Shown: positions 323 through 47,500 of the stretch, piece after piece | How positions within the stretch are numbered: position 1 is the first letter of the stretch | Layout of the letters: every line of letters starts with the position of its first letter | DNA from: a virus | IMG/VR virus record: IMGVR_UViG_3300045988_135167 | DNA: 64,000 bases | Strand: one strand, 5' to 3' | Position numbers and translations under genes: made by a program | The notes under the pieces: generated by a model | Told to the model about the DNA's origin: nothing | Seen by the model: the letters and a program-made list of their open reading frames with translations, nothing else | Database searches by the model: none

Positions 323-567
323 GGTTTTTTCTTTCTATGTGGTAGGATTCATTTGTCAAATAAAAATTATAAAGAAGCTATTTTTCCATATCCCTGGTCT
401 TGTAACGAATAAAGAAGAGATGCTTCGGATTCTTCCCAAGCTACCAGAACACTAGGTGCATTACTAGTTCCTCCGCTCTTTCCGTCCGGATAACAAAACT
501 TAATTCGCCCTTCCACAAAAATAAATATTTTGCTTTATTGAGAACCCATTGATGAAACCAACGAGTA

Positions 568-3265: not shown

Positions 3266-5465
3266 CGATGGCCCACATTCTTGGTGTAGTGTCTGTAATA
3301 AGGTAAATAGTGGTTGGGTCTTTCGTGGCCAGAGCCGTGTAGGCCGCCTTGGTAGTGGTTACTATCTTGGCGTAGCGTGCGTCTCCCATGGCTACGTTGA
3401 CTCCCATGTTGTCAGTCAACGTGGTTCCTTCGGCAGGGGCTGGAAACTCAATAGGTAGATTCAATCCGACTTTCCCGTTTGCAGGGCCTTCAAGCCAGAA
3501 ATCAGCTCCTGAGGAATACATGTTGATTGAAGTACCAAACTGGATTCCGGTACCATCTGCAATATTGAGTAAACCATTGGAATTGATGGCACCTGTAACG
3601 GTGAGGGTTTGCCCCATCGTAACGCCCGCATTAAAGGCCGCCGCACCCGTAAAGGTAGTTATTCCAAACTTCCAATCCCCGCTAACTTCTACCGTAGTAG
3701 GAGTGGAAGCATTGTATCGAATACTGTTGGGTCCGAACTGAAAGACTTCTGCCTGACAAGTTCCTGAAACTGAAACTGATTCCATAACAGGAAGGACCAA
3801 ACTACTATCTGCGGTTGGAAGAGAAACTTCAACGCGCTTTGCCGCATTGTTGTAGTTCAGCCTAAAAAAGACTGTGGAAGTGGAATCAATGAAACTAAAA
3901 CCAGAGTTACTGGGATCACCATAGTAACCTTCAATGCTTCCAGACAGTACGCCAACACCATCCATTAAAACAATGGGCTTATTACTTTCAATCCCATCGC
4001 CAAAGGAAGCTTTTCCAGCCACGGAAAGAGTCTGACCCATAGTGACACCTTGAGTGAAAGTCGCAGGTCCTTGAACTTCAAATTTCTTTCGGAACCAGAC
4101 ATTCCCTGTAGGGTCGAAAGTTAACCACACAGTATTGTTTCTCTGAACAAGCTGGTAATAGCCATTGTTGGCTGTATAGGTCCACTTACAGCCATATGCA
4201 GACAGAGTTGGATGGTTCTGCTCCATAAGAGTTTCCATTGCAGAACTCCCTTCCGTAATCCCAAAGGATATGCCTTTCTCTGCTTTAATCATTGTAGAGA
4301 AAGTAGTGGCATCCTGAAACACAGTCGGCTCCTGAAAGGTAGTAGAAACCGCCACATCCAGGTGTGCTCCGGTCCCTCCTTCAATTACCGACATCCCGGC
4401 ACCCGTGCCATGGAACTTAACGGCATCGGCACCAACGCCAAAAGTCAACGGAGCTTCATCAGCCATGGTAACGCCGTCGGTAAAAGTTTTAACCCCGGCA
4501 ACATTCTGGTTTCCAACATTCTTTACCGTAGGAGCAATCTGGCCATCCACGTATAGTTTGTTCGTAAGGTCACTAGGGGCTGAAGGGCTTCCCGTTTTCA
4601 TAATTCCCCCAGTAAAGGTCTTGTTACCAGAAATCGTTTGCTCCGTATCCAGAGTAACAAAATTGGCTCCTATACCGGAAACCGCATTGTCCACATACGA
4701 TTTGTTCGCCGCCTGCCCGGCCTGGGTAGGAGTGGGAACAGTGATGTTGGTAAAGCTCCACGCCCCAGTAATCGTGGCATCAGAAGAGGGCGTAAGTGAA
4801 TCTCCTGAGCCTGCGCTAAAAACCACGGGGGAGACCGTGATATTGAACTTGACGTTGGAACGTCCACCGAGATGTAGGATAGGCTTGGCCCCTGTCATCA
4901 CAAACAAATGGGAACCCACTGTGGTAACTCCGCGGAGAATGACCTGGGTGGCCTTGGTTCCCGTCAATCCCACGATGACGGCTGAGAAGGTTTCATCGGT
5001 GACAATGCCGGGTGTCTCCGGGTAGTCCTTGTCCTGCACCGGGAGAACCGAAAGCACGTACATCTTGCCCGCTTCCAGATTCAGGGAACTCAAGTCATAA
5101 TAGCCTGGAGCCACGGACGTTCCTGCCACAAACGGATTGATGGGGTCCGCAACTTCCATTTGGAACTCCTGCTCCACCAGAGCCATAGTCGCATGTTCCG
5201 TTACAGGCTCTTTGACCACGCGGAAATAACCGTTGGACAAAATAGGAAGAATCAGACCTGTAACCGTCCCATTGATATGGAACTGAGTGTCTTGAATGTT
5301 GCTCCAGTCTTCATCCGTTGGAGCGGTTGCCGTCATCTGGAACACCGCTCCCTGGGTCGTGGATTGGAGAATCCACGCTTCGGAGTTCATCTCTCCGGGA
5401 ATCTGGTAGGTCGTTCCCGCGGTAATGGGATCGCCCGAATTATATTGTACAATGTCTAAAGCCAT
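3228..5465 (-). CDS. Tail fibre protein, about 745 aa.
   Basis: Large Gly/Thr/Ser-rich beta-type protein with repeated KSYVDNAVSG and NKLYVDGQIA fibre-like motifs. The true start is MALDIVQYN at 5465. The listed MFHVEH start is an artefact of the palindrome. Confidence 0.6.
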   Translation of the reverse strand: MALDIVQYNSGDPITAGTTYQIPGEMNSEAWILQSTTQGAVFQMTATAPTDEDWSNIQDTQFHINGTVTGLILPILSNGYFRVVKEPVTEHATMALVEQEFQMEVADPINPFVAGTSVAPGYYDLSSLNLEAGKMYVLSVLPVQDKDYPETPGIVTDETFSAVIVGLTGTKATQVILRGVTTVGSHLFVMTGAKPILHLGGRSNVKFNITVSPVVFSAGSGDSLTPSSDATITGAWSFTNITVPTPTQAGQAANKSYVDNAVSGIGANFVTLDTEQTISGNKTFTGGIMKTGSPSAPSDLTNKLYVDGQIAPTVKNVGNQNVAGVKTFTDGVTMADEAPLTFGVGADAVKFHGTGAGMSVIEGGTGAHLDVAVSTTFQEPTVFQDATTFSTMIKAEKGISFGITEGSSAMETLMEQNHPTLSAYGCKWTYTANNGYYQLVQRNNTVWLTFDPTGNVWFRKKFEVQGPATFTQGVTMGQTLSVAGKASFGDGIESNKPIVLMDGVGVLSGSIEGYYGDPSNSGFSFIDSTSTVFFRLNYNNAAKRVEVSLPTADSSLVLPVMESVSVSGTCQAEVFQFGPNSIRYNASTPTTVEVSGDWKFGITTFTGAAAFNAGVTMGQTLTVTGAINSNGLLNIADGTGIQFGTSINMYSSGADFWLEGPANGKVGLNLPIEFPAPAEGTTLTDNMGVNVAMGDARYAKIVTTTKAAYTALATKDPTTIYLITDTTPRMWAIGDMGIVTADVPA

Positions 5466-5480: not shown

Positions 5481-5510
5481 GGGGAAATGTTCCACGTGGA
5501 ACATTTCCCC
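5481..5510. promoter_or_regulatory. 30-bp perfect palindrome GGGGAAATGTTCCACGTGGAACATTTCCCC, located 8 nt after the upstream stop codon and 15 nt before the tail-fibre ATG.
   Basis: Direct reading. The core TGTTCCACGTGGAACA is shared with three other sites. The minus-strand transcript then has a U-rich run (cuuuuucuu). Confidence 0.8.
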
Positions 5511-19099: not shown

Positions 19100-20452
19100 C
19101 GCAGAACCTCCCTGACGAGCAATACCCCTGTTATCCTATTAAGGATGGGTTAAGGCTATCACAGCGGGAAGCAAAGTCAATTAGGATTTCATTAAAAATT
19201 CATATCCTTAATTATCTAGAATAAATTTCTATGATTCTCGCTTCGACAACTCGCTAACCTTCCACTGGTTCTCCCAGTCTCTAGTGAACTCGAATCTCCA
19301 CGAGCGTAAGTTTCCGACTCCTCATCGGTACAATATTTTAAAATATTCAACGCCGCATTCAGGTCCCTATCTGCGGTATAGCCACAAAAAGGACATTTAA
19401 ATGTGCGCTTGGATAAATCCTTCATCGCACGATGACGTTCTCCGCAACAAGAACATAACTGCGATGAAGGGTACCATGGATCAACAAGCTCAAACGTACG
19501 TCCTGCACGAACGCATTTATATTCAAGCTGACGACGTATCTCATAAAATGATTGCTCTCCAATACTTCGGGCGAGATGATGGTTTTTCATCATGCCCTTG
19601 GTGTTGAGCGTCTCCATCCGAATCGCTTGGTTCTCGCGAACAAGGAATGAAGTCATTTTATGGATAAAGTCTGTATGTTGGCGCATTAAGCGTCTGTTGC
19701 GTTTTGCCAATGCGATTTTGGCTCTTGTGCGTCTCTTGCTACCTTTATGGCAACGAGAAAAATGTCTTTGAGAAAGCTTGATGCGACGCAATGAACGCTT
19801 CAAAGGGTTCCAACAAAAGACTTTTCCATCAGAGCAAGTCACAGTGGATTTGAGGCCAAGATCAATACCAACTTCTTTATTTACTAAAGGAAGAGACTCA
19901 ACAGGGTAATCGAAAAGAACTGAGCAATAGTAATCAATCCCATCCGTAGAAAGAGTGGCTCGTTTCAATTTCACATCTGGGATATAACCTTTGTTGTAAA
20001 ACTTGACCCGACCAAGTTTAGCAAGGCGAAGATGGTTACCATCCTCAAGACGTGGAACTGTGGGACTTACAGAAGAATAAGACTGTCTTAACTCTTTCTT
20101 ACTCTTGAACTTAGGGTAACTTGCCGAATGTGACCAAAAGCGCTGAAATGCTTTTGAGAGATTGTCGAAAACAAACTTCGGTATTTGAGAATCACACTCA
20201 TTAAGCCACATGAAATTAGAGTCCTCTTTCTTAAGCTTTCTTATTTCATTCCCAAGGTCAAAAGCGGATGGCCTTTTGGGCCGCTGATCCTTGGGGTATC
20301 TTTGTTCTCTTCCCACCATTTGTTGAGTCTTTCCAATCCCCAATTCCAAAGGAATCTTGAAGCACCAAAATTCCGATGAACCAATTCTTTTTGGAACTTG
20401 TTCAAATGAACTTTCACTTTACGACTCTGAAACATAGTTAAATTAAAGCAAC
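19100..20452 (-). mobile_element. IS200/IS605-family tnpB-only (IS1341-like) element. The boundaries are approximate.
   Basis: TnpB ORF plus a hairpin-rich 3' flank, inserted 17 nt after the upstream gene's stop. Sits at the junction between the structural and replication modules. Confidence 0.55.
19216..20435 (-). pseudogene. tnpB: tnpB (IS605 OrfB, RNA-guided nuclease family), interrupted by a +1/-1 frameshift near 20270-20300.
   Basis: N-terminal fragment 20241..20435 (KVHLNKFQKELVHRNFGASRFLWNWGLERLNKWWEE, the OrfB N-terminal HTH) and the body 19216..20349 overlap in different frames. The body carries the RuvC/zinc-finger C-terminus CSCCGERH...CPFCGYTADRDLNAALNI. Confidence 0.65.
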
Positions 20453-26007: not shown

Positions 26008-26035
26008 CCGGAATGTTCCACGTGGAACATTCCGG
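26008..26035. promoter_or_regulatory. 28-bp perfect palindrome CCGGAATGTTCCACGTGGAACATTCCGG, located 8 nt after the upstream stop codon and 18 nt before the DNA polymerase ATG.
   Basis: Direct reading. Same core and same 8-nt spacing (GGTTnnnn) as the site at 5481-5510. Confidence 0.8.
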
Positions 26036-32318: not shown

Positions 32319-34080
32319 GATTTTTTAATAGGTGAAAAGTCAGAACAGAAAATCCCAAATAATCTAGTAAGACCCCCATCGTATATAGGGTAAGCGAGAG
32401 GTTAAGATTTTTTGGCTTTCCCAGGATATGACTAAGCGTCAGCGACTTATCGGTTTCCGTTAGTCCGTTAGCTATAAACTCCAATATATACATACGTGAG
32501 AAATGTAGTTATAAAAAAACACATATAGGAATGTCCGCGCGTTAAATGTGTGCGCGGGAGAAAGCCAACCGGAAGCTGAGGGCAAGCCCAAACCCATCTG
32601 TTTTATCCCGCCCTCGCAAAATTGCCCATTCCCGCCATTCTTTCATGTAGGGTGTACACCTAACAGGGCCTTCAGGTATAACTTTAAGCCTCGACCACTA
32701 TCACCATTCACCCTCTCGCATATTTTCAATTTTGGTTCCATCACCCTCCCTGGAACGCCCCTCCGGTGCTTTTCTCCGTGCCAGGGTGGATTCCCGGTTC
32801 GACGGACCCATGTTCCGTTGGCCCGCTCACGTGTACGCGCGACCCTGGCGCAAATCCCGGTTTGTCGTCCTGGCGAATCGTGAACCCGGCTTCAACGATC
32901 CTTCGCTTCAACGCTTCCCCGGTTCAAAACTTCGGCGACCCCATTTCCGGAAAAATGCGAGTTGAGGATTTGGATATGCGCGGCGGGCGGCTGAAGGGGG
33001 AGTGACCGTGGTGGTGTCAAAAAAGTTAGGTGCGACTTTTTTAGAATCATTCCAACATTGAAGCGGTGAATCGGAGCCGCGCCGGGAAAACCAAACGCCC
33101 TACCGTATAGCATAACTCGCTTATACTTAACAGTCTCTTAATCCATACTTCGCATAATATACGTAATGCCAAATCGGTTGCGTGTCCAGTGCATAACGCG
33201 TTGAAGCTTAGAACCTTGAACCCTTTTCCGTTGGCTTTTCGCTTGGGAGAATCTGCGATTCATTGGTTCAACGGTTCGGCGTAGCAAAAGAATCCATTCT
33301 GGAGCTTTACAAAATTGTAAAAAAGAGACTTTTCTTTTGCGCCAAATTGTAAATCCCTACCATTCCGATAGGGATAAACGCTGAAGCGTTGTAACGTAGT
33401 TGCGTTGAATCATTTAGCCACATACCAGAACCGACATATCAATGAATCACGATACGTTGATGCGTTGAATCGTTGAACTGTGGAAGGTCTGCAAGGAATA
33501 AAATTTTATGCTTGAATGTAAAACTTTTCTAAATCCCTATAAACCAATGACTTATAAGGATTTAGAATCACTGAATCAACAATCGGAGCATCGAAAAGGC
33601 ATAAAATTTTATACAATTCGGCTAAAATCATATAAAATTTTATCCAACTGATATTCAATCACTTGGGATAGAATCATGAAAAAACCCATAACGAAGCGTT
33701 GAATCATTGAAGCGTTGAATCGTAGAATCTTGTTCACTTTTTATACGCTTGTATAAAAAGTGACGGGGAAACCGGGAATCATGGAGCCGTGAAACTGGAA
33801 AAAAGTCCAAAATGGAGCCGTGAAACTGAAAAAGAGTCCAGAATGGAGCCGGAATGAGTCAAAACTTTTTATACAAGCGTATAAAAAGTGAACAAGGCTC
33901 ACATGCGAGGGTTGTATGACACAATCATAACCTATTGATACTGAACAGATAATAAAATTTTTGAAGAAAAGGATTGACGTAATAAAAAAAATAATGATAA
34001 AAGATAGTCATCAGCCGAACGAACTACAAACCGACTGAATCCAACAATCAAATACTAAACAATAGAAAGAACCAGCCAAC
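32319..34080. other. Non-coding divergent control region, a candidate replication origin. It contains iterons, palindromes and inverted repeats around a GC-rich structured island.
   Basis: No credible ORF. GCGTTGAATC occurs 4 times (33402, 33462, 33697, 33712) plus degenerate and inverted copies. ATAAAATTTTAT occurs 3 times. An inverted-repeat pair (CACTTTTTATA-n6-TATAAAAAGTG, 33735-33762 and 33866-33890) flanks three 31-bp direct repeats (33781-33865). Confidence 0.6.
32530..33035 (+). ncRNA. Candidate structured non-coding RNA. This is a GC-rich island with many hairpins, and the strand is uncertain.
   Basis: Hairpins at 32534-32558, 32578-32616, 32744-32767 and 32882-32928 (enclosing two CTTCAACG motifs), then an AU-rich stem plus T-run at 33017-33043. 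The translations look non-protein (Pro/Cys-rich, overlapping frames). Confidence 0.3.
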
Positions 34081-34344
34081 ATGAAGAGATACCGATTTGT
34101 GATTTACGCCTTGAAAGGCATTGCAGGCCTGAAAGCGGTTGACTCCCTGGAATGCTCTACGCTTTTGGAAACTATCCGGAAAGGCAAGCATGCCGTTGAA
34201 ACTAAAGGTGAAAGCCTTGTCATGTGGGTCCAAAAATACGAACCGGGTACTGAGCCGTCCGGCTGGCTGACAGTCACTGTGTTCACCCGCAAGGGCGGCC
34301 CGCGCTCCCATTGGATGGAAAAGCCGGACTACTCCCCCTATTAA
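34081..34344 (+). CDS. Early hypothetical protein, 87 aa.
   Basis: ATG 10 nt after AATAGAAAGAACCA. First gene of the rightward block. Confidence 0.45.
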   Translation: MKRYRFVIYALKGIAGLKAVDSLECSTLLETIRKGKHAVETKGESLVMWVQKYEPGTEPSGWLTVTVFTRKGGPRSHWMEKPDYSPY

Positions 34345-34371
34345 CCCTAAACCATAGAAAGACAATAGATT

Positions 34372-34467
34372 ATGACAGAAGAAAATAAAGAAATGGAATG
34401 GGAGACACACGCCCTTGCGAGTCAGGCGGCGGCCCGTGCTAATGCAACCCTTATATGGTGCGTGTGA
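34372..34467 (+). CDS. Small early ORF, 31 aa.
   Basis: ATG 9 nt after CATAGAAAGA. Not in the ORF track because it is under 60 aa. Confidence 0.3.
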   Translation: MTEENKEMEWETHALASQAAARANATLIWCV

Positions 34468-34480
34468 TTTTACCGTTCGC

Positions 34481-34506
34481 CGAATTGTTCCACGTGGAAC
34501 AATTCG
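34481..34506. promoter_or_regulatory. 26-bp perfect palindrome CGAATTGTTCCACGTGGAACAATTCG, followed by the hairpin GGCGAGGTTTTAATCTCGCC (34519-34538).
   Basis: Direct reading. Confidence 0.8.
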
Positions 34507-34572
34507 AGAATCACAAAAGGCGAGGTTTTAATCTCGCCGCATAAATAAGCCAATAGACAGGAAAATCAAATC

Positions 34573-34818
34573 ATGAAGCCTATCATTACATTCTGCAAGC
34601 CGGACCTTTCCGGAAAAATCGCGCCCCTTTGTGGCACGATGGATTCCTATTTGGACGACGGCCGCCGCTCCCTGGAGTCCATTAAACAATCTGCATGGGA
34701 AGAATTGAAGCGACGGAACGCCCATTCAAAAACCAATTATGCCGGGTTTGTCATTTATAATGCCATTTCCTTCCCATGGCGCACCGTGTACAAAACCCAT
34801 GAAGAAATTGAGGATTGA
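34573..34818 (+). CDS. Early hypothetical protein, 81 aa.
   Basis: ATG follows CCAATAGACAGG, a variant of the upstream motif. Confidence 0.4.
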   Translation: MKPIITFCKPDLSGKIAPLCGTMDSYLDDGRRSLESIKQSAWEELKRRNAHSKTNYAGFVIYNAISFPWRTVYKTHEEIED

Positions 34819-34856
34819 ACCTTTAATTTGAAGGAAAAAGCATATATCTTTGAATC

Positions 34857-35054
34857 ATGATAACTTCATATATTCCCCCTTGCCTTCAGCGGTCCGCGCG
34901 TGAATTGGAGCTTGAACTGGCAAAGACCCGGTGGATTCAAGCCGTTGAATACCTGAAAGAAGAAATTGAAAATAACAAGCACGACAAGCGGAAAGTCCGC
35001 GCCTTGCTTCAACGGCTCCGGGATCAATATTCATGGAGGCCTGCTATTTATTAA
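34857..35054 (+). CDS. Early hypothetical protein, 65 aa.
   Basis: ORF. Confidence 0.3.
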   Translation: MITSYIPPCLQRSARELELELAKTRWIQAVEYLKEEIENNKHDKRKVRALLQRLRDQYSWRPAIY

Positions 35055-35194
35055 ATAAAAAATAATGAACAAAAAGCTTGCAATCCGGTTCAAGCAAGCA
35101 TAGATTGAAAGCATCAACTGAGGCGGCCCGCCGCACAGGGCAATCCAAATCCGGTTATCACCGGAAAACTAAAATCCAAACCAAAAACTAATTT

Positions 35195-35608
35195 ATGAAT
35201 ACTAAAGAAAGACGCACAGAAGACCTTCTAAGGGCATTTGGAATTCGATTTTCTAAATTTAAATTAGGTCTTAGAATCCCGCCGCACTGGGGCGACTGTC
35301 AAGATCGTCACATGGAATATTTGGTACGGTTTGAACGATTGAAGCCGCGGAGGGGCGAAAAAGATGTGTTAAACGTTTTATGGTACGCTTCTTTACTGAG
35401 ACCAAATGAATGCACAGCGTTTGACGTTCTGACTACCTTGACTAAAGAAAAGTTCGCCGATTTTGAAGATTTCGCGGATCAACTTGGTATGGATTATTCC
35501 AAAAAAAGTTACAAGCTTTACAACGCCATCCAACAGGAAGCGGAAGACGTGATAGCTTTCTTTTCCCGTGAAAATGAATTGAACTTAATTTCTACCCTCG
35601 AAGACTAA
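35195..35608 (+). CDS. Early hypothetical protein, 137 aa.
   Basis: ORF. Confidence 0.4.
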   Translation: MNTKERRTEDLLRAFGIRFSKFKLGLRIPPHWGDCQDRHMEYLVRFERLKPRRGEKDVLNVLWYASLLRPNECTAFDVLTTLTKEKFADFEDFADQLGMDYSKKSYKLYNAIQQEAEDVIAFFSRENELNLISTLED

Positions 35609-35610
35609 AC

Positions 35611-36066
35611 ATGAATCCATTAGTACAAAGAGAATTAGGCTTGCTGATAGTATCCGTGTCCATGAACCTTGATGGAACGGGAACACTGACTTTTGATCAC
35701 AAGCATCGCGGCATGCTCAAAACCATGTCATTTCCGAAACTGCCGGACGCGCTCAATATGCAGGAACGCATTATTCGTTATACCTGTGAAAAATTGAATA
35801 GGGTCAAGTCTTCAAAAGGGCATGTAGTCAACTTTTTTAGGCTATCTCCTTCTCTTGTCATGGTGAAGGCTCCCATGAACTATTTGACAATGATACAGGG
35901 AGATGGACAAAAGCTTAACGTTGATTATGCGACCGCCTTGTTTGCCGAACTGAAAGAAGGTAGGTTGGTTTCCGATTTTTTCCCGATTCCGGAAGAATTG
36001 GAAGTTGTTTATTACAAGGTGGAAGATGATCATCTTGTCATGGTGATTGAAGATAAGTCACGCTGA
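35611..36066 (+). CDS. Early hypothetical protein, 151 aa.
   Basis: ORF, start overlapping the previous stop. Confidence 0.4.
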   Translation: MNPLVQRELGLLIVSVSMNLDGTGTLTFDHKHRGMLKTMSFPKLPDALNMQERIIRYTCEKLNRVKSSKGHVVNFFRLSPSLVMVKAPMNYLTMIQGDGQKLNVDYATALFAELKEGRLVSDFFPIPEELEVVYYKVEDDHLVMVIEDKSR

Positions 36067-36079
36067 ACCCTTAATCCCT

Positions 36080-36109
36080 CCGGAAAATGTTCCACGTGGA
36101 ACAATCCGG
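36080..36109. promoter_or_regulatory. Palindrome with the perfect core TGTTCCACGTGGAACA (36088-36103) and imperfect outer arms, followed by the hairpin GGCAGGATTAAAATCCTGCC (36131-36150).
   Basis: Direct reading. Confidence 0.75.
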
Positions 36110-36182
36110 GAACCTCAAACCAAATCAAAAGGCAGGATTAAAATCCTGCCACGTAAACAAACCAATAGAAAGAACCAACAAT

Positions 36183-36815
36183 ATGAACGCTAATTCAATT
36201 TATGAACTGGAACAATTAAAGGAAAAAGTCGCGCTGAACCGTTGCATCCTGGAAATCTGGATCGACGTATTGCCTCACATGGACAAATGCTTTAAAACTT
36301 TTCAGGAATGGCTTGAAAAGCACCAAGGGCAAGTGATTAACAAGCGCGTGAATACAGCCATGAAAGAAGCCTTTCGTGGGTTTGATTTCCCGAACTTATC
36401 CCACAAGGAGTTTAGGAATGTTTCCCTGCGAACGTTTGTAGATTTTGAATTTTCCCGTTATCAGGTAAACGCTTTTCAATTTTCTGTTAACATGGAGGTA
36501 ATCTACTCTTTGAAGACTGACGAATTTGGATGTAAATATGATAAAAGTTTTTGGATTAACGAAGACGGTATGACAATCGGCAAGATTGACGTTAATTTAG
36601 TTGAAGGAATTAAAAACATGCGTAGAAAGTTGAAGAAGAAAATCCATGAGGCAAAAGATTTGTTGAATCACTATGAAGACCGCATGGCCGTTCTTGTTCA
36701 AAAAGCGGAAGCATGTCTTCAGGCAATGGAAGACTGGGAGAAAGCAACAAACCTTTTTAATAGCCCGCGCTGCTTTATTGCTGTGGAATCCTGCCCTAAA
36801 TTGAATAAACGTTAA
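36183..36815 (+). CDS. Early hypothetical protein, about 210 aa. The start is MNANSIYELEQ.
   Basis: ATG 9 nt after CCAATAGAAAGAACCA. The upstream extension in the ORF track starts at the ATG inside the palindrome and is an artefact. Confidence 0.45.
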   Translation: MNANSIYELEQLKEKVALNRCILEIWIDVLPHMDKCFKTFQEWLEKHQGQVINKRVNTAMKEAFRGFDFPNLSHKEFRNVSLRTFVDFEFSRYQVNAFQFSVNMEVIYSLKTDEFGCKYDKSFWINEDGMTIGKIDVNLVEGIKNMRRKLKKKIHEAKDLLNHYEDRMAVLVQKAEACLQAMEDWEKATNLFNSPRCFIAVESCPKLNKR

Positions 36816-36875
36816 ACCTTGAACTCGCCGGGGAGCTTCAAACTCCCCCGGCATTGAATAGAAAGAAACCTAGTC

Positions 36876-37397
36876 ATGATCAATCTTCAAAAACCTGTAA
36901 TGGTAAGCAATGAAGCTTTCCTTGAATGCCTGGACATTCCCACATGGGCAATCAATTATTTGGAATATGGGGAGGACGAAACGGAAGAACTTCATCCGGA
37001 CGATTTGGCCCTTGTCGAGTCATTCAGAAGGAAATGGGATCACCTTGAACGAAAATCGGAAGAGTTCTATTCCAACTCTCCGGCGTTTGGTCTTCCGTCC
37101 ACCGTGGAAACATGGGCTTGCATTCCAAAAATCCTTTCCGGGTTTGTCTCCTACGCTCCCCTGAACCGTAGAATCGGCGTAAACGGAAACGTTATTTATT
37201 ACACGCAAAAGGAGAACGGAACCTGGAAGATTGTTTATGGTCTTGCATCCGTTTCCCTGGATGGAAGAAAAACAGTCGGCGTGTGCGTCAATGAAGTCCT
37301 GGAACGGATACGCCTGGCAAAAGATGAACGTGTTAAAGGGTTCATAATCAGAAGTCATAACACAGTTCTTTTTAAATCAAACAAAAACATAGCCTAA
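36876..37397 (+). CDS. Early hypothetical protein, 173 aa.
   Basis: ATG 9 nt after GAATAGAAAGAAACC. A hairpin (CCGGGGAG...CTCCCCCGG) lies just upstream. Confidence 0.45.
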   Translation: MINLQKPVMVSNEAFLECLDIPTWAINYLEYGEDETEELHPDDLALVESFRRKWDHLERKSEEFYSNSPAFGLPSTVETWACIPKILSGFVSYAPLNRRIGVNGNVIYYTQKENGTWKIVYGLASVSLDGRKTVGVCVNEVLERIRLAKDERVKGFIIRSHNTVLFKSNKNIA

Positions 37398-37398
37398 G

Positions 37399-38169
37399 AT
37401 GAAATTGTACTTGACTAAAAACACCGGACGTGAAGAGTTCGCAAATGTTTATGAAGCCTTGCGGTCTTCCTATCCAGAGAAAGTGCGGCGGGAGATTTAC
37501 CCCGTTCAATTCAACTATGAAAATCCAGGGCAAAAGCCGCCTATCCGTATTATCGGCTCTGATCTGGCAGGAACTCCCATTCTGTGCATGGCCATTCATG
37601 AAGATGGAGAACTTACAGGATTCATGAAAAGATACAAGTACCCGGTGAAGCTTCCCTTCATGGCTCGAATTGCGCTAGATGCAGGAGCTACTCATTTTCT
37701 GGGAATCCGGGAACTTCCCATTCACCAGAAGCTTGCCGACCTTCTGGATTTTAAAGTGATGGATGATCCGCAACTTGCCGCCATGAATGCGGTTGCCAAT
37801 TTGTTCACGGAGTCCCGGAAGTCTCCTGATGTGGTTCGGTTTGGTGCCAAAACAGAGAAACGAAATGGCCCGCGGGAACTGTTGAACAATTTCATTCTGG
37901 AAATTGCGGACAATTGCATCGTGCGCCGTCTTGAAAATAGCCGGGAGTCGTTGAAGTCCTATCCGCTGGAAGTCATCGCCCGCATGACCAGCCGCAACAT
38001 TGTTCCACTGATTCCTGAAGATGTGGACTGGGAAACTTTCGTGCGTATTTCCCCCAGGGAAGACCCCGAAACTATCATGGCCGCCGTGTTGCTGGATCGG
38101 GAAGGGGAGTTCCATATCTTTCATGATTATTCCGTGCCTCAGCACGTGGACTTCTCCGCACTGGCATGA
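37399..38169 (+). CDS. Early hypothetical protein, 256 aa.
   Basis: ORF. Confidence 0.45.
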   Translation: MKLYLTKNTGREEFANVYEALRSSYPEKVRREIYPVQFNYENPGQKPPIRIIGSDLAGTPILCMAIHEDGELTGFMKRYKYPVKLPFMARIALDAGATHFLGIRELPIHQKLADLLDFKVMDDPQLAAMNAVANLFTESRKSPDVVRFGAKTEKRNGPRELLNNFILEIADNCIVRRLENSRESLKSYPLEVIARMTSRNIVPLIPEDVDWETFVRISPREDPETIMAAVLLDREGEFHIFHDYSVPQHVDFSALA

Positions 38170-38275
38170 TTCAATACCCCGCCGGGAAGCCTGAAGCTTC
38201 CCGGCATCCTCACCAAGCCAAAAGCAGGCCTCACGGCTTGCCGCGTAAAACAAGCCAATAGAAAGAACCAAACAA

Positions 38276-38773
38276 ATGATTGAAGCTAAAGAAACGCCGC
38301 ATCAACTGACGTTGCATCATTTAAACGATGTAGTTCAAATCGTGGGAAACCGTTTCATGTCCTACGAATGGAAGGAAAAAGACCGCATGATCAACCTGCA
38401 TGTGCGCCCGGAAGTGGCATGGGACCTGATGAAACTCCTGCGTTCGCAGGGTTACCGCGTCAAATGCCGCGTTGAATCCAGGTTCCGGAAGCCCGCCATG
38501 GTGCTTTCCACCTCATTGAATGGCCGCTCCGGCAAGTCGGTAGCCTATGCCCGCCGGGCCGCGGAGCTGGCCTCCCAGTTTGAAGTTGACTCCCCGCAGG
38601 TACTCTTTAAAAAGCGGAGCGTGGAGCTTTCCTTCTGCGGGAAGGAAGACCTGGAGCGCATCATGGCCCGCATGGTGGATGCGCTGGATGAACTGGGGCA
38701 TGCCCGTCTGCTGAAGGAAGCCTGTCAGGGGACCCTTGGCCGCGAGTTCGTTTACACCATTATTTGCGATTAA
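38276..38773 (+). CDS. Early hypothetical protein, 165 aa.
   Basis: ATG 9 nt after CCAATAGAAAGAACCA. Hairpin CCGGGAAGC-CTGAA-GCTTCCCGG at 38184-38206. Confidence 0.45.
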   Translation: MIEAKETPHQLTLHHLNDVVQIVGNRFMSYEWKEKDRMINLHVRPEVAWDLMKLLRSQGYRVKCRVESRFRKPAMVLSTSLNGRSGKSVAYARRAAELASQFEVDSPQVLFKKRSVELSFCGKEDLERIMARMVDALDELGHARLLKEACQGTLGREFVYTIICD

Positions 38774-38800
38774 AGCTCATGAAGACTAGCAATCAATCCT

Positions 38801-39142
38801 TTGAGTCAGGGGACTTTGTGGAGATTACATTCTCCGGACACATTACTGGATATGATCCGAGTTCGGATTATCCCTACACAGTTATCTTTACTGCCGCAGA
38901 TAGTAGTGAAAATCTTAAAGCTGGACCCTTCAAATGAATGGTTCCAACATGAAGCCCATGAACTTCGCTGTCTGGTAATCAATTCCGTGATAGCCGGGTT
39001 TCTGGCATGCGGGTGCGTCCTGGCCGCTATCGGCGGTTATTGGATTAACTTTTTAATTGATATTGGAATCCTGTCTGTTCTTATATTGACTATTAGCAAC
39101 CATTTAAGTTACTTCAAAAAGCATTATGACGAAGTCTATTGA
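38801..39142 (+). CDS. Possible small membrane protein. The start is unclear, and a 52-aa ORF (38779..38937) overlaps in another frame.
   Basis: Hydrophobic segment VINSVIAGFLACGCVLAAIGGYWINFLIDIGILSVLILTI. Confidence 0.25.
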   Translation: MSQGTLWRLHSPDTLLDMIRVRIIPTQLSLLPQIVVKILKLDPSNEWFQHEAHELRCLVINSVIAGFLACGCVLAAIGGYWINFLIDIGILSVLILTISNHLSYFKKHYDEVY

Positions 39143-39527
39143 AGACCTCAAGGACTTGCCTCAGGAACGGGAGTTCCAGGTGGAGTTCGGACCCTACCAA
39201 ATCATCGGCAGGTTCCAGGATGGGACCTATGAGGGCAATGAAGCCCTGATCCAGGTAGCCCGGAGCTATGCGGCGGCGTTGTTCTGTTGCGCCTTCATTG
39301 AAAAGCTCAAGGCGACTTCCAAAATCATGATGAAGCTGGTTTCTGAAGCCAGTTCGGCCATAAACAAGGCGGCTCCCGGAGTCAGCATCAAGGAAGGGGA
39401 GTTTGATCACCACAAAAAGAACTTCCGCATGCGCCTTCTCCTGCCACAGGGTCCCCCCTCATTGAAGATTCGTGTTTACGGACTCAGGGGACGTGCCAGA
39501 ACCATTTACATTAACACTTCGATATGA
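39126..39527 (+). CDS. Hypothetical protein, 133 aa.
   Basis: ORF. Confidence 0.4.
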   Translation: MTKSIEDLKDLPQEREFQVEFGPYQIIGRFQDGTYEGNEALIQVARSYAAALFCCAFIEKLKATSKIMMKLVSEASSAINKAAPGVSIKEGEFDHHKKNFRMRLLLPQGPPSLKIRVYGLRGRARTIYINTSI

Positions 39528-39814
39528 ATTACAAAGACATAGGAATACTACTCCGCAACTGTTATGAAAGCTCCCTGTCCCATGGGAGCATCCGCACCCT
39601 GATTGCGTGCAGTGACGGTGAACCCAAATCCGTGGCAGAAGTGGCCATGGAAACCGGGACCCAGACCAACACGCAGGGAATCGACCTGATGAACCTGCAC
39701 CTTCAGGGCTACCTGAAACGCCATGGCAAGGTCCGCAGTTACAGGTACTCCATCACCTCAAAAGGCAAGAGGTTCCTTGCCATTACCCTGGATGCAACGC
39801 CGGACGCTTACTGA
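39524..39814 (+). CDS. Winged-helix (PadR/MarR-like) DNA-binding protein, 96 aa.
   Basis: KSVAEVAMETGTQTNTQGIDLMNLHLQGYLKRHGKVRSYRYSITSKGKRFL, a helix-turn-helix plus wing pattern. Confidence 0.4.
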   Translation: MNYKDIGILLRNCYESSLSHGSIRTLIACSDGEPKSVAEVAMETGTQTNTQGIDLMNLHLQGYLKRHGKVRSYRYSITSKGKRFLAITLDATPDAY

Positions 39815-40142
39815 AAGCTACCAGTGGTTGCTGGACCACACGCGCCTGAAGGTTGCTGAAGACTACCTGCTCTTCGTGTACAACCTGCTGACCTGGGATC
39901 GCCGCCGGGAAGAACCCTTCGATGAAGAACTGTTCTGGGTTGTCCGGATCATCCTCATTGAAGGAAAGGTCCGGGACCTAGTGGAAAAGGGAATCAAGGA
40001 AGGCCGCAACCCCGGCCACCTGGCCCTGGAATGCGCCATTTACTACGCCGAAAAAGACACGGAATTCAATAATCAAATCCTTAACCTCAAAGAATTATAT
40101 GACAGAATCACAGCTAATGGAACTTCGGGAGCTGATCATTAA
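39723..40142 (+). CDS. Hypothetical protein, 139 aa.
   Basis: ORF overlapping its neighbours. Confidence 0.35.
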   Translation: MARSAVTGTPSPQKARGSLPLPWMQRRTLTESYQWLLDHTRLKVAEDYLLFVYNLLTWDRRREEPFDEELFWVVRIILIEGKVRDLVEKGIKEGRNPGHLALECAIYYAEKDTEFNNQILNLKELYDRITANGTSGADH

Positions 40143-42583: not shown

Positions 42584-43321
42584 ATGCCCTATGTTCCAAG
42601 ACCCCCGCTGATCCGGACTCCCAAGGCCAAGAAAAAGCGCATGGCCGCTTCACGGAACCGGAAGTACCGCCGGGAATACAAACGCCGCAAAAGGGTTGAA
42701 GAGATCGCCCGCCGCCTGGAAGCCGGGGAGACTGTGGACTCCATTGTCCGCGCTCCGATGACTCCGGCTGAAAGGAAGAAGAATGAAGCCATTAAAAAGA
42801 AGGTGGCGTCTTCCACTCTGACGGTGGTCAACAAGGTGCTGGCGGCCAAGCGCAATGAAACGGGGAGGCTCACCGGGAAGGGGAGACGGGCCGTCAAACT
42901 GTTGGCGGCCCGCACCAACCGGAGGTATGGGGCCGACGGATTGAGCGACTACCTGTACGAAGAAGTCACCCGCTTTGACAACACATCCCAGATTTTGTAC
43001 GACAAAAAGGGGATGTGCTTCAAGGCCAAGTTCTGGATTCCCATGAAAGGGTTCGCCCCCTACTTCTTCCTGGTCCAGCTGAGGCTCTACCCGGATGCCC
43101 GGATTGCCTATGAGGAAACCCAGCGGCTTCACCTGGTAGGCATGCGCCTTCTTCGCCGCTACTTCCTGAAGGGCAAGGAGGTGGACAACCCCACCAATGA
43201 AGAGATCATCCGGTTTAAGAAGATGATGCGCCGCTTCCGTGAATGCTCGGCCCTGCGCTACCGGATTCCCTGCTCCCGGTTCAAGGGATTCAGACTCCTG
43301 CCCCAGATGAAAAAGTATTGA
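42584..43321 (+). CDS. Hypothetical basic protein, 245 aa, with an Arg/Lys-rich N-terminus.
   Basis: ORF. Confidence 0.4.
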   Translation: MPYVPRPPLIRTPKAKKKRMAASRNRKYRREYKRRKRVEEIARRLEAGETVDSIVRAPMTPAERKKNEAIKKKVASSTLTVVNKVLAAKRNETGRLTGKGRRAVKLLAARTNRRYGADGLSDYLYEEVTRFDNTSQILYDKKGMCFKAKFWIPMKGFAPYFFLVQLRLYPDARIAYEETQRLHLVGMRLLRRYFLKGKEVDNPTNEEIIRFKKMMRRFRECSALRYRIPCSRFKGFRLLPQMKKY

Positions 43322-43352
43322 CAATCGAATCATAGCACATAGAGAAAAGAAA

Positions 43353-44528: not shown

Positions 44529-47500
44529 GTGCGTCAGATTAACGGCGCGCACCATCCTTTTATTATGGCTATTGATTATTCCAAGTTAAGACCTTCCGAC
44601 TTTCGACCGGAAAGAGATTCAGAGTTCCGGGCTGAAACCAATTTCCTTCAGCGGCAGGAGGACCGATCCACCCGGCTCCAGAAGGAAGAGGGGCAAGCCC
44701 AGGTCGAAGCCGAAGAACCGCTGGCCAAGTTTGAACAGGAGCTGGCCAAGACGATTGAACGGAATCGGAAGAATGCCGAGAGTGCGGAAGACCGCCAGCT
44801 CCGGTTGACCCGCCAGCAACAGGCCGACATTGACAAGGAAACTTCCAAGTTCGTGGCCACCACCACACGGGAGGACCGGGCCACGACCCAGGCAAACCAG
44901 AAAGCTGAGAGCAGGTTGGCCGCGCTGGGAAAAACCGGGAGAAGCGGTCTGGTATTCAATACGATTGAAGAGGCCGAACAGTATAACAGCCGTCCGGATA
45001 CTGACTTTGTTGACTATGTGTCAGGAGGCGCGGAAGCTTTCCGCAACAAGGCTTCTTCCCTGGGCCTGTCCGTGGTTGATCCGGCTTCCCTTCCCCAGCC
45101 TGTCAAGACCCGGCCAGCCCAGCAACGGGGAGATGAATTGACCGGGACCATGCTCAAGCGCAGTCCCTATGGTATAGCCGTCGGCAGTGATGGAAGCATT
45201 GTGGTCTCCGACAAGTTCATGCAGTTCGCCCTGAACCCGGACCTGGACCCGGCGACCCTGGCCAAGAATATTTCCCGAACATTTGATGCGTTTAAAAAAG
45301 AAGCCAATCCCACGCAGAACCCAAACAGCGAGATCAATTCACGCAACCTTGCACCCGAAGACATTGAACAACAAATCAGAACCCTCCGGGCCAGTGATGT
45401 CCGGACCCGTGATTCCGTCCGGAAAATCCTGCAAGAGCGGCAGGACGCGCTATCAAAGTACAAAGCAAGAGAAGAGAAGATTCAGCAAATCCAGGGTGGA
45501 AGCCCCGGCCAGCAAACTCAACGGCAGGAAGGAACCCCGCAAGTGGGGGAGCCGCTTGGAGGTGGCGAATCTTCTGAACTCACGTTCGTCCAGAACGTCA
45601 TCAGCCAGATCGACCGCCTCCGCACCGAGCCGGAACTTGCCGCTGAAGCCTTCGGGGAACAGCTCGCCGGACAGACAGACGCACAATCCGTAGCCCAGCG
45701 CGGAGCGGTGGCCGATGAATTGCAGTCGGCAATCGACCAGCAGGAGCGTTACAAACGCACGGAGGAACTGGCCGCCCGCATGCGGCTGATTGAAGAGAAC
45801 AAGGACAAGCTCGCCGAATCGCTGGTGCGCCAATCGCCCAACCTGGAATTCAGAACCATCCGCAAGGAGCTGGATGATGACAGCTTGATGGCCAATGAAG
45901 CGTTGGAGCAATGGGTCGTGAACCGTGGATTCCCTTTGACTCCGCAGGAAGCCGACATTATTAACAGCCGCTCCAATGAACTCTCCGCAAACGCGGCAAT
46001 CGCCGATGACTATGAGAAGGCCAGGGACCAGGCGGTGAGGGAATATCTCAAGTCCCAGGATGCGTCGCTGGATGACCGGGGCATTGATACCATGGGCCTT
46101 CAGCACTATGCCATGCGGCACATGGGCCAGCTTGACCAGGACAATTCCCCGGAGCGCGTGGCCAGGGAAGCCCTGCGCCATTGGGCCTCGGAGGCCCGGC
46201 AGATTTTTGGCGGCCAGGCGTTTGAGTCCGACCAGATGGTCAACCCCCTGGATGCGTTGCAGTGGGTCCACCGTCCGGAGACCGGGAAGTATATCCTTCA
46301 ATTCATTGATCCCACCACCAAGGAGGGGTATGGCAACGGCTATGAAGTGGACTTCATGGGGGTGCATGACAACGCCCGCCGCCTCGGCGTTACACCGGAA
46401 CAATACCTCGACGCTTTGGCCCTCCCCCTGCGCCAGGGAAACCTGGGTGACAGCCGGGACACCAACACACTCTTCGCTTATGATCCCATTAACCAGGTTC
46501 TTGTGGAAAATGCAACGATTGGGCAGGGCAATTCCGCAAGCTATTTTGATGATGCCCTGCTTGAGCGCAGTATTGAACAGGCCCGGAAAGCTGGCGCGCC
46601 GCAAGAGCAAATTGATGCGACCGTCAAAGAGGTCCAGCGCGTCCGGGATGAAGCGAGCCGTATCGTGGTCTCGGACCTCCTTCAGGAGTCGGATGCCATG
46701 GCCCTGGTCAGCGACACACCGCTTGAGGGGATCATCCCCCAGTCGGTCAAGGACAGCATCCAGGCATCCACGGCTGTCAATTTCCGGCAGTTCTATGACA
46801 TTGAAAAGAAAGCGGGCAAGGATGATCAGGAGATCATCCGGGACTACATGTCCGATGTGAAGGACAAGAAAATATCCATGGGGGTCAACATGGCCCTGGC
46901 CCGCTGGGAGAATCAGTGGAACCGCATCAAGCTGGCTTCCGAACAGTGGACCAAATCCGCGCTCTCCCTGCTCCCCGGAGTCAACCTCAACGAGGGACAG
47001 GGCCAGCGGTATGCTTCCGAATGGGAAGCCTTGAACAAGCGTGACCAGCTGATCACTTCTGCCGTGGGACGCGCCGGGTCCGTGGCAGAGTGGACGGGAG
47101 AATTTGGATCACTGGCTCTCCAGTTGGGAGAGTCTGCAATCTCAGGGGGATTGGGTTCCCTGGCCGGACGCGGGGCGGCCCGGCTTCTGGCCACCCGCGC
47201 CGCAACGATTGCAGGAACCAGCGTGGCTCTCCGAAGTGCTGAAGTGGTGGGAGCCGTAGCCCGGCCCGGAATCACCAGCCGCATCGGGCAGGGAGTCACC
47301 CGGCTCCTGACAACGGAGTCTGCAACCCTGGCCCGGCTCGGAGCCGGGACGGCCAACTCCATGTACATTGCCATGCAGAGCATGCCCCAGACCTACGGGG
47401 ATGTCTTCACCCACCGCTACCAGCAAGCCAGGGAGATGATCAACAACGATCCCCTCACCCGGAACATGGCCGAAGGAATGAAGGACGAGCTGGCCCAGAA

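Follow-up and report, generated by a model that had tools for sequence, protein, structure and literature searches.

A reiterated 9-mer before the small early genes of an uncultured gut phage is probably a Shine-Dalgarno site for the extreme 3' end of 16S rRNA

Introduction

Outside the enterics, 16S rRNAs mostly end 5'-GAUCACCUCCUUUCU(A)-3', and the sequence UAGAAAG is listed as a Shine-Dalgarno (SD) sequence specific to Bacillus subtilis, the only one used by gene 6 of phage phi29 and used also by its gene 7 (PMC5427494). The phi29 record has AAUAGAAAGU (aaAUAGAAAGu) before gene 6, 12 nucleotides (nt) from the ATG, which places U1, the mRNA position opposite the rRNA 3' end, at -19. Here we analyse a 9-mer that contains UAGAAAG, ATAGAAAGA, in IMG/VR virus record IMGVR_UViG_3300045988_135167, a stretch of 64,000 nt (hereafter the window) that represents most of the roughly 70-kb genome of an uncultured human-gut phage. 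The 9-mer recurs before small, putatively early open reading frames (ORFs), where it is probably an SD site for the last bases of the 16S rRNA. The tail-directed SD sequence as such is a known kind, documented in phi29.

The identical 9-mer AUAGAAAGA, followed by GGUGA, precedes phi29 gene 7 with U1 at -18. The likeness to phi29 (tail ..CCUCCUUUCU(A)) thus extends to the sequence (this 9-mer for gene 7, AUAGAAAG for gene 6), to the register (U1 at -18 and -19 there, at -17 to -19 here) and to pairing through the terminal nucleotides and not through CCUCC. The setting differs. SD sequences stand before nearly all genes of phi29 and B. subtilis, with the tail-only form a minority among them; in the phage described here almost no other gene has one, and a single class of genes repeatedly carries the tail-only form as an invariant 9-mer. 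What is unusual here is that, in a phage that otherwise shuns complementarity to rRNA, the one common signal of this kind is an invariant 9-mer confined to shuffled early cassettes.

Two motifs of the Bacteroidota also bear comparison. Their A-rich non-SD motif (GeneMarkS-2 group B, bioRxiv 10.1101/193490) is likewise purine- and A-rich, sits about 9 nt upstream of the start and belongs to genomes without SD sequences; the Kozak-like A positions of Flavobacterium (PMC6847099) recur as A at -3, -6, -12 and -13 in the copies with an ACCA spacer, at 36165 and 38258. The Bacteroidota motif, however, is degenerate and stands before most genes, whereas the element described here is an exact 9-mer before about 11% of genes, and its two invariant G residues match C residues of the rRNA tail. 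The rpsU and rpsR genes of SD-blind Bacteroidota (ribosomes lacking bS21/bS18; PMC7797042, PMC9976891) offer the parallel of a few rRNA-complementary genes in a genome that otherwise avoids this complementarity. Their sites are extended, of the core GGAGG type, autoregulatory and located on ribosomal protein genes, in contrast to the tail-only sites on phage early genes.

Results

A 9-mer at a set distance from the start codons of small genes

The window holds seven exact copies of ATAGAAAGA, against 0.33 expected, and this number was reached in none of 100 shuffled sequences (Table 1). Six of the seven lie 7-10 nt 5' of the ATG of a real ORF. A first-pass annotation, made by a model from the letters and the ORF list alone, had described a fixed spacing between the motif and the ATG, and we find it as described, at 9-10 nt for five rightward genes and at 7 nt for the leftward gene that starts at 322; the variant that it noted before 34573 is also there (ATAGACAGG, at 11 nt). 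It had overlooked the seventh exact copy, at 62850. The motif, the variant site included, precedes 7 of the 63 called genes (about 11%) and is therefore not a general compositional feature of gene starts, a possibility that the annotation had itself raised against its proposal. Its restriction to small ORFs beside the divergent control region, in reiterated intergenic cassettes, was likewise corroborated. The six gene-linked copies and four more in relatives stand 5' of ORFs of 31-210 codons, and the gene calls in the relatives are concordant. All copies share a stretch of only about 13 nt, (C)CAATAGAAAGAA(C)C.

The near-identical relatives of this phage come from gut metagenomes (our contigs L046-L049 and L071-L078). 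Across L046-L049 the distance between motif and ATG keeps to 9-11 nt. L047 also carries it before genes that are absent from the window (9 nt to the ATG at 4752; 6 or 9 nt to the ATGs at 5028/5031), has ACAGAAAGG 11 nt before 5652, and has ATAGAAAGG 11 nt before 5998 as the orthologue of the 34573 site. The surroundings of the motif turn over. Upstream of the 165-amino-acid (aa) gene, L047 has a proximal hairpin of another sequence and L046 has deleted both the hairpin and the CGTAAA block, with CCAATAGAAAGAACCAA and the ATG unmoved. Upstream of the 210-aa gene, CGTAAA is missing in L047. Neither among paralogues nor among orthologues is the sequence 5' of CCAAT conserved. The proposal that the motif forms one module with a hairpin and the CGTAAA block thus did not survive the comparison: the hairpin lies at a variable distance of 5 to 15 nt from the motif, both companions are replaced or deleted in relatives, and the distance from CCAATAGAAAGAACCAA to the ATG is unchanged. 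Judged from these alignments, the constrained element is approximately (C)CAATAGAAAGAA(C)C together with its spacing to the start codon, and the hairpin and CGTAAA are dispensable, since the motif and its distance to the ATG are kept while the flanks turn over.

Complementarity to the 16S rRNA tail and a shared register

The last seven nucleotides of 16S rRNA, CUUUCUA-3' (usual tail 5'-CCUCCUUUCUA-3'), are perfectly complementary to UAGAAAG within the 9-mer. The motif had been dismissed as a poor match to the anti-SD sequence; this is true of the CCUCC core, but not of the end of the tail. The UAGAAAG/CUUUCUA duplex has 7 base pairs (bp) and a predicted energy of -6.9 kcal/mol, and the variants pair over 8-9 nt, all of this computed against the consensus tail GAUCACCUCCUUUCUA, which may not be that of the host. 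In the variants (-7.9 to -10.8 kcal/mol) lost tail pairs are made up by core pairs. For ATAGACAGGAAAA the exchange is one tail pair for GGA (-7.9 kcal/mol), and for ACAGAAAGGAAUC it is the terminal U, again for GGA (-10.8 kcal/mol); ATAGAAAGG has one pair more (-8.8 kcal/mol).

As many as 26% of random 25-nt windows reach -7 kcal/mol against a 16-nt tail. Because duplex energy alone fails to discriminate, we turned to the register: true pairing requires that U1 occupy the same place as in other SD-like sequences. Among runs of at least 5 nt matching UAGAAAGGAGGUGAUC in the window, 12 have U1 at -15 to -18, where about 2.4 are expected, and the other registers are at expectation (18 vs 14). Besides the tail-type copies, this cluster contains GGAGG (28541), GGAGGT (29115), GAAAGGA (42039), AAGGA (24168) and GAAAG (20319). 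The related contigs, with 61 further non-redundant genes and the distant clade included, give 12 runs at -15 to -19 against about 3 expected, among them GGAGGT (L051:4655), GGAGG (L071:3339) and AAAGG (L068:16642); a small ORF of the distant clade has AUAGAAAGGAG upstream, with U1 at -16. When all motif copies are removed, 14 register matches are left, compared to about 6 expected. The motif itself has U1 at -15 to -19, the same register as the core-type SD-like runs and inside the DtoStart range of 13-24 given for a tail that ends in AUCU (PMC5427494).

The starts that carry the motif are also distinctive in structure. In every cassette the folding prediction leaves the whole stretch between the last hairpin and a point past the ATG unpaired, and the mean minimum free energy (MFE) of the segment from -25 to +20 is -1.2 kcal/mol for the motif genes and -3.4 kcal/mol for the others. 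The base at +4, directly after the ATG, is A in all seven motif genes and in 52% of the others. These observations make it quite likely that ATAGAAAGA is a translation-initiation element, whatever its mechanism, and the complementarity and register point to tail-directed SD pairing with the last 16S bases as the probable one.

Cassette exchange at the motif

Aligned with L047, the window loses homology at 34052/34463 and at 34545/34551, at or adjoining the hairpin-motif cassettes, and different ORFs lie between the same junctions. The cassettes are paralogous, with 71-88% identity. The longer shared block of the first-pass annotation is real: positions 36155-36186 and 38248-38279 are 88% identical, and the 56-nt modules at 34514-34569 and 36126-36181 are 71% identical. 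These breaks and paralogies invite the reading that the motif is only a recombination scar or cassette boundary, a homologous junction for cassette swaps whose spacing to the ATG was inherited and not selected. We regard this as very unlikely. The hairpins and CGTAAA drift or vanish, whereas the 9-mer and its spacing to the start codon stay as they are; the variant copies change in such a way that rRNA complementarity is kept; and the unstructured starts and the A at +4 point to selection for expression. A role in shuffling is compatible with a role in expression and is probably secondary to it.

The nearest known counterparts in architecture are the PeSL cassettes of T4-type phages (PMC2839356, PMC4122927), short composite intergenic units with a stem-loop before small variable early ORFs, at which indels between close relatives end. 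The cassettes of the window also contain a stem-loop, and replacements between close relatives also end there. In PeSL cassettes, however, a sigma-70 early promoter is conserved; here the promoter part is absent, conservation falls on a ribosome-binding motif tied to the ATG, mostly without a promoter consensus, and the stem-loops lack a downstream U-run on the coding strand.

A search of IMG/VR for the exact 16-mer gave 45 matches, which is about the level of chance, and L025/L046 is the sole relative of the window among them. In an unrelated low-GC (35%) phage family from other metagenomes (L016, L017, L021, L027, L030, L034, L035 and L042) CCAATAGAAAGAACCAA stands 9 nt before an ATG and 3' of a TATAAT box. 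At this site (e.g. L027 6354-6420, minus strand) CCCAATAGAAAGAACCAATCCA runs directly into the ATG of an ORF of 153-177 aa; the other genes of the family use AGGAG sites. This family may make independent use of a tail-type site, or the match may be a coincidence of the 16-mer search.

The promoter alternative

The first-pass annotation had favoured repeated early promoter or leader units. On such a view a reiterated early promoter would have ATAGAAAGA as its -10-like or initiation region and would be recognised either by a phage polymerase or by the RNA polymerase of the host together with a phage factor. Leaders would be very short, and the hairpin would serve as an N4-type hairpin promoter or would terminate the unit before it. 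The leftward copy at 330-338(-) speaks for this idea. A 14-mer element, TTGACAnnnGAATC, has six exact copies co-oriented with genes, at 359-346(-), 1154-1141(-), 29144-29131(-), 43318-43331(+), 56880-56867(-) and 62610-62597(-) (the shuffle figure of 1.55 refers to matches with at most one mismatch). Five of the six, and one at L071 2414, have TAGAAA, TAGAGA, TAGGAG, TAAAGA or TAAACC 8 nt further on and then, after another 6-9 nt, the ATG of a real ORF. Such a layout suggests a class of promoters whose mRNAs are leaderless or nearly so. At 330-338(-) the motif, and at 43340 the related TAGAGA, fall exactly in the -10 slot of TTGACAnnnGAATC-N8-TAGRRR, with the ATG 7-9 nt later, and because TAGAAA occupies this slot the role of the leftward copy is ambiguous: promoter element, ribosome-binding site or both. 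A promoter would also suit the orphan copy at 62850, which has no ORF to translate. The 3311-aa protein encoded in the rightward arm is near the N4 virion polymerase in size, and ATAGAA resembles the initiation region of the SP6 promoter.

The copies in the early region do not follow this pattern. None of the six, the variant included, has a TTGACA-like hexamer or the GAATC element at the required distance, and TTGACA-N16 occurs only at 330-338(-). TAGAAA lacks the invariant T at the final position of a -10 hexamer, and its first T lies 17-19 nt from the ATG, compared to 12-15 nt in the promoter-like class; the implied leaders of 4-5 nt would suit neither leaderless nor SD-led initiation. T7-type promoters extend over about 23 bp (-17 to +6), whereas only about 13 nt are shared here, and the sequence 5' of CCAAT is unconserved, unlike positions -17 to -5 of such promoters. 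An N4-type hairpin promoter is contradicted by the variable hairpin distance, by the absence of a hairpin at 34062 and 34354 and by its deletion in L046. The position of the copy at 34354, 10 nt past a stop codon, fits a ribosome-binding site internal to an operon. A matching polymerase was also not found: the 3311-aa ORF has no PHROG or PDB match, no Pfam match above threshold and no DxDGD motif in sequence-level comparison, so we rejected it as a crAss- or N4-like polymerase, and no single-subunit or other RNA polymerase was detected among the large ORFs scanned. A promoter role for the early-region copies is thus unlikely.

Host-type promoters may instead lie further upstream. The promoter-like sequence at 33974-34003, about 60 nt upstream of the first motif copy, is the likely start of the rightward early transcript, and TTGCAA-N17-TAGATT at 35078-35106 would perhaps be a further one.

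The 3311-aa ORF (44565-54500(+)) has a single HEMAH motif near residue 1576 and orthologues of 3312-3468 aa in the relatives. A 15-bp hairpin with TTTATT behind it comes to within 7 nt of the ATG.

The orphan copy and a possible regulator site

The copy at 62850 lies among minus-strand genes and is preceded by a hairpin and followed by a two-codon ORF (Table 1). On the minus strand of this locus, UCUUUCUAU, the reverse complement of the motif, lies between a promoter-like sequence and a hairpin with UUUU. The full order along 62797-62892(-) is TTGACA-17-TATATT, about 50 nt, UUUCUUUCUAU, a 13-bp hairpin with UUUUC and, 12 nt later, the ATG of a 128-aa gene. Like UUUCUUUCUAU, UCUUUCUAU matches the 16S tail and is antisense to the early motif, which lets us speculate that the segment encodes a regulatory RNA, in the form of a minus-strand RNA of about 90 nt or a 5' untranslated region. 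An endolysin gene and a short gene of 67 aa, which may encode a holin, lie just upstream of the locus.

An antisense RNA of this kind would be one agent in a further explanation of the motif, as a site on the mRNA for a regulator that brings about coordinated shut-off or activation of the early cassette genes. The regulator might also be a phage translational repressor or endoribonuclease (cf. T4 RegA and RegB, whose targets are early ribosome-binding sites), Hfq or S1, and its action may coexist with ribosome binding. In keeping with this, AAU-AGA-AAG-AAC forms an (ARN)4 run, as for Hfq or S1, the 9-mer is invariant beyond what 7 bp of pairing would need and is limited to one temporal or positional class of genes, and the locus with the possible minus-strand RNA or untranslated region is conserved in 8 contigs. 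These contigs are all nearly identical, however, so that conservation says little, and the anti-motif is partly paired in the predicted fold. No candidate regulator gene was found, and the early ORFs gave no informative family matches. A regulator would also leave unexplained the register that the motif shares with the core-type SD-like sites of other genes. Overall we hold this explanation to be improbable.

Hairpins and a genome-wide palindrome

The first-pass annotation had listed four hairpins. Those at 34519-34538 and 36131-36150 are as reported, and no hairpin precedes the copies at 34062 and 34354. The one before 36858 is present, at 36827-36852 and not at 36822-36844, and the one reported before 38258 is present at 38181-38205, with a second hairpin nearer to the motif at 38224-38241. 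The hairpins differ among copies in sequence, stem and loop. In the GC-rich hairpins at 34519-34538, 36131-36150 and 62813-62843, an A-run on the 5' side on the plus strand corresponds to a T-run after the hairpin on the minus strand; by this feature the two in the early region look like intrinsic terminators that point against the early genes. No antisense promoter to match them was found. Assignment of the proximal hairpins to a strand by G-U pairs versus A-C mismatches gave two cases for each strand.

A separate palindrome, TGTTCCACGTGGAACA, has four exact copies against 0.02 expected, all intergenic (5488-5503, 26014-26029, 34486-34501 and 36088-36103). The two outside the early region stand before the DNA polymerase gene and the gene for a 758-aa tail protein; the copy at 5488-5503 places the start of the latter at 5465 and not at 5504. 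The inner 16 nt are invariant and the outer stem covaries (GGGGAA..TTCCCC, CCGGAA..TTCCGG, GAAT..ATTC, CCGGA..TCCGG), which produces hairpins of 24-30 nt. The palindrome could be the binding site of a dimeric protein or an RNA or DNA hairpin with a conserved apex. A search of the whole window against Rfam gave no match at gathering score.

Table 1. Motif copies, promoter-like site, hairpins and palindromes in the window
Feature	Position	Strand	Context
ATAGAAAGA	34062..34070	+	10 nt to ATG 34081, 87-aa ORF; unstructured CA-rich leader (predicted MFE -3.4 kcal/mol, 34010-34086)
ATAGAAAGA	34354..34362	+	9 nt to ATG 34372, 31-codon ORF; 10 nt past stop of preceding gene; no hairpin
Variant ATAGACAGG	34553..34561	+	11 nt to ATG 34573, 81-aa ORF; one tail pair lost, core pairs GGA gained
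ATAGAAAGA in CCAATAGAAAGAACCAA	36165..36173	+	9 nt to ATG 36183, 210-aa ORF
ATAGAAAGA	36858..36866	+	9 nt to ATG 36876, 173-aa ORF, DUF6926
ATAGAAAGA in CCAATAGAAAGAACCAA	38258..38266	+	9 nt to ATG 38276, 165-aa ORF
ATAGAAAGA	330..338	-	7 nt to ATG 322; in -10 slot of TTGACAaatGAATC-N8-TAGAAA (359-346)
Orphan ATAGAAAGA	62850..62858	+	Hairpin, motif, 11 nt, then ATG GTT TAA (2-codon ORF), among minus-strand genes
Promoter-like TTGACG-N18-TAAAAG	33974..34003	+	TG upstream of -10; L047 has TTGACA-N18-TAAAAA
Proximal GC hairpin, 8 bp	34519..34538	+	34573 cassette; A-run 5' of hairpin, terminator-like on minus strand
Proximal GC hairpin, 8 bp	36131..36150	+	36183 cassette; same A-run; uncompensated changes in L047 and L049 orthologues
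Hairpin	36827..36852	+	Before 36876 cassette; L046 has a different, duplicated hairpin instead
Distal hairpin	38181..38205	+	After stop codon of 256-aa gene
Proximal hairpin	38224..38241	+	38276 cassette; other hairpin in L047, deleted in L046
Palindromic hairpin, core TGTTCCACGTGGAACA	34482..34505		Genome-wide intergenic element
Palindromic hairpin, core TGTTCCACGTGGAACA	36079..36110		Second early-region copy

Genome context and relatives

Two divergent gene arms make up the window. The leftward arm (32318 to 1) encodes a VapE-type primase-helicase, a family-A DNA polymerase, a helicase, a DUF2800 nuclease, a TnpB-like protein, the large terminase and tail proteins. The rightward arm, from 34081, comprises small ORFs without assigned function, an NAD ligase and the 3311-aa ORF. 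A non-coding stretch of 1.7 kb (32320-34000) separates the arms. It contains GCGTTGAA(TC) iterons phased at 8 nt (33383-33735), a perfect 33-nt inverted repeat (33729-33761 / 33864-33896) and a tandem 31-mer (33781-33842), is conserved at 87% in L047, and is probably a replication origin or control region.

Cultured phages gave no match in a megablast with positions 33000-40000, and a protein search with the DNA polymerase returned only matches of at most 26% identity. Against IMG/VR, the primase, an alignment of primases and the primase of the distant clade (28% identical) found nothing or only generic VapE helicases, and in a large protein search the 165-aa protein and the primase found near-identical proteins only. 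A wider family of contigs of 65-72 kb was reached through TnpB homologues. The distant TnpB-linked contigs were covered as 10-kb flanks, and their early regions fall outside these.

The TnpB or Cas12f-like gene itself (19216-20319(-)) has OrfB_IS605 and TNB domains. Homologues with 50-63% identity occur on many 65-72-kb gut metagenome contigs in the same gene order, at times in 2-3 copies per genome, so that TnpB is apparently resident in this phage family. Past the right end of the window, L071 4470-4955 (corresponding to about 63845-64330) encodes a Tad2-like (PF11195) anti-defence protein beside an endolysin (PG_binding_3), within the leftward late block.

The host

Upstream regions in the window are A-rich and G-poor (G 5-19% from -8 to -2), and start regions are depleted of anti-SD complementarity (mean -3.97 kcal/mol, compared to -5.37 kcal/mol in random windows of the same genome). 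The host is probably a lineage in which SD sequences are scarce. Scarcity of SD sequences together with a retained CCUCC marks two gut lineages, Bacteroidota and Akkermansia (PMC10783764). TAnnTTTG boxes of the Bacteroidota type occur less often than expected (14 vs 24), on which ground we rejected Bacteroidota-type promoters, and TTGACA-type sites stand before several units; read from these promoter signals, the evidence would lean away from a Bacteroidota host. Searches of a genome collection with LigA and TnpB returned no relatives and no pointer to a host, and the window has no tRNA genes.

A stronger proposition can be framed on this background, namely that a phage of an SD-scarce gut bacterium, Akkermansia-like or of the Bacteroidota, equips its early cassette genes, and no others, with a site that binds the last 7 nt of the 16S rRNA. 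We put it forward as distinctly doubtful.

Discussion

The reading that we favour for ATAGAAAGA, as a probable tail-directed SD site, can be given as a mechanism. The mRNA sequence UAGAAAG (or its variants UAGAAAGG / AGAAAGGA) would pair with the last 7-8 nt of the 16S tail 5'-..CCUUUCUA-3', that is, with nucleotides located 3' of the classical CCUCC core, and by this pairing the AUG, which follows 10-12 nt later, would come to lie in the P site. The motif would be presented in an unstructured leader poor in G and U, with A at +4, and one copy would serve every small rightward gene with an intergenic spacer of its own. Long transcripts, begun at host-type promoter-like sites such as 33974-34003, probably carry these genes. 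The upstream hairpins would be separate elements (terminator, processing or stability hairpins and the conserved palindrome), which together with the motif would form repeated intergenic cassettes, the sites of gene-cassette exchange between related phages. In this scheme we infer the binding of the 30S subunit, the 3' end of the host 16S rRNA, the early timing and the polycistronic transcript.

Several points weigh against this mechanism. Pairing was tested on the consensus tail only, and the mature 16S 3' end of the host may differ. If the host belongs to the Bacteroidota, in which the whole 16S 3' tail is sequestered by bS21/bS18/bS6 (PMC7797042), extra explanation would be demanded. The motif stands before a small minority of the genes of the window, and their starts are otherwise depleted of anti-SD complementarity. 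The 9-mer is stricter than pairing needs, with its leading A and its CCA / ACC flanks unexplained, and common descent of duplicated cassettes could lie behind part of the conservation and of the fixed spacing. One copy, the orphan, has no gene, and another, at 330-338, coincides with a -10-like slot. The relatives that contain the early region are all more than 90% identical in protein, which limits the power of comparison.

With the tail-directed SD site as the reading, what appeared to be a new early promoter or leader module is recast as a recognisable ribosome-binding signal from which the hairpins are shown to be separate. This supplies a practical rule for calling the starts of small early ORFs in an uncultured family of roughly 70-kb gut phages, and the cassette structure accounts for the exchange of early genes between related phages. 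If the host proves to be SD-scarce, the motif would offer a simple handle on whether the 16S tail works there, and a compact translation signal for expression constructs in bacteria of this type. Should the stronger proposition on early cassette genes be true, the extreme tail of the host would be usable despite its scant use of SD sequences, or the phage would exploit or create a subpopulation of ribosomes with a freed tail. A site so uniform would then permit the early class to be switched off jointly, possibly by the minus-strand RNA from 62797-62892 that contains UCUUUCUAU.

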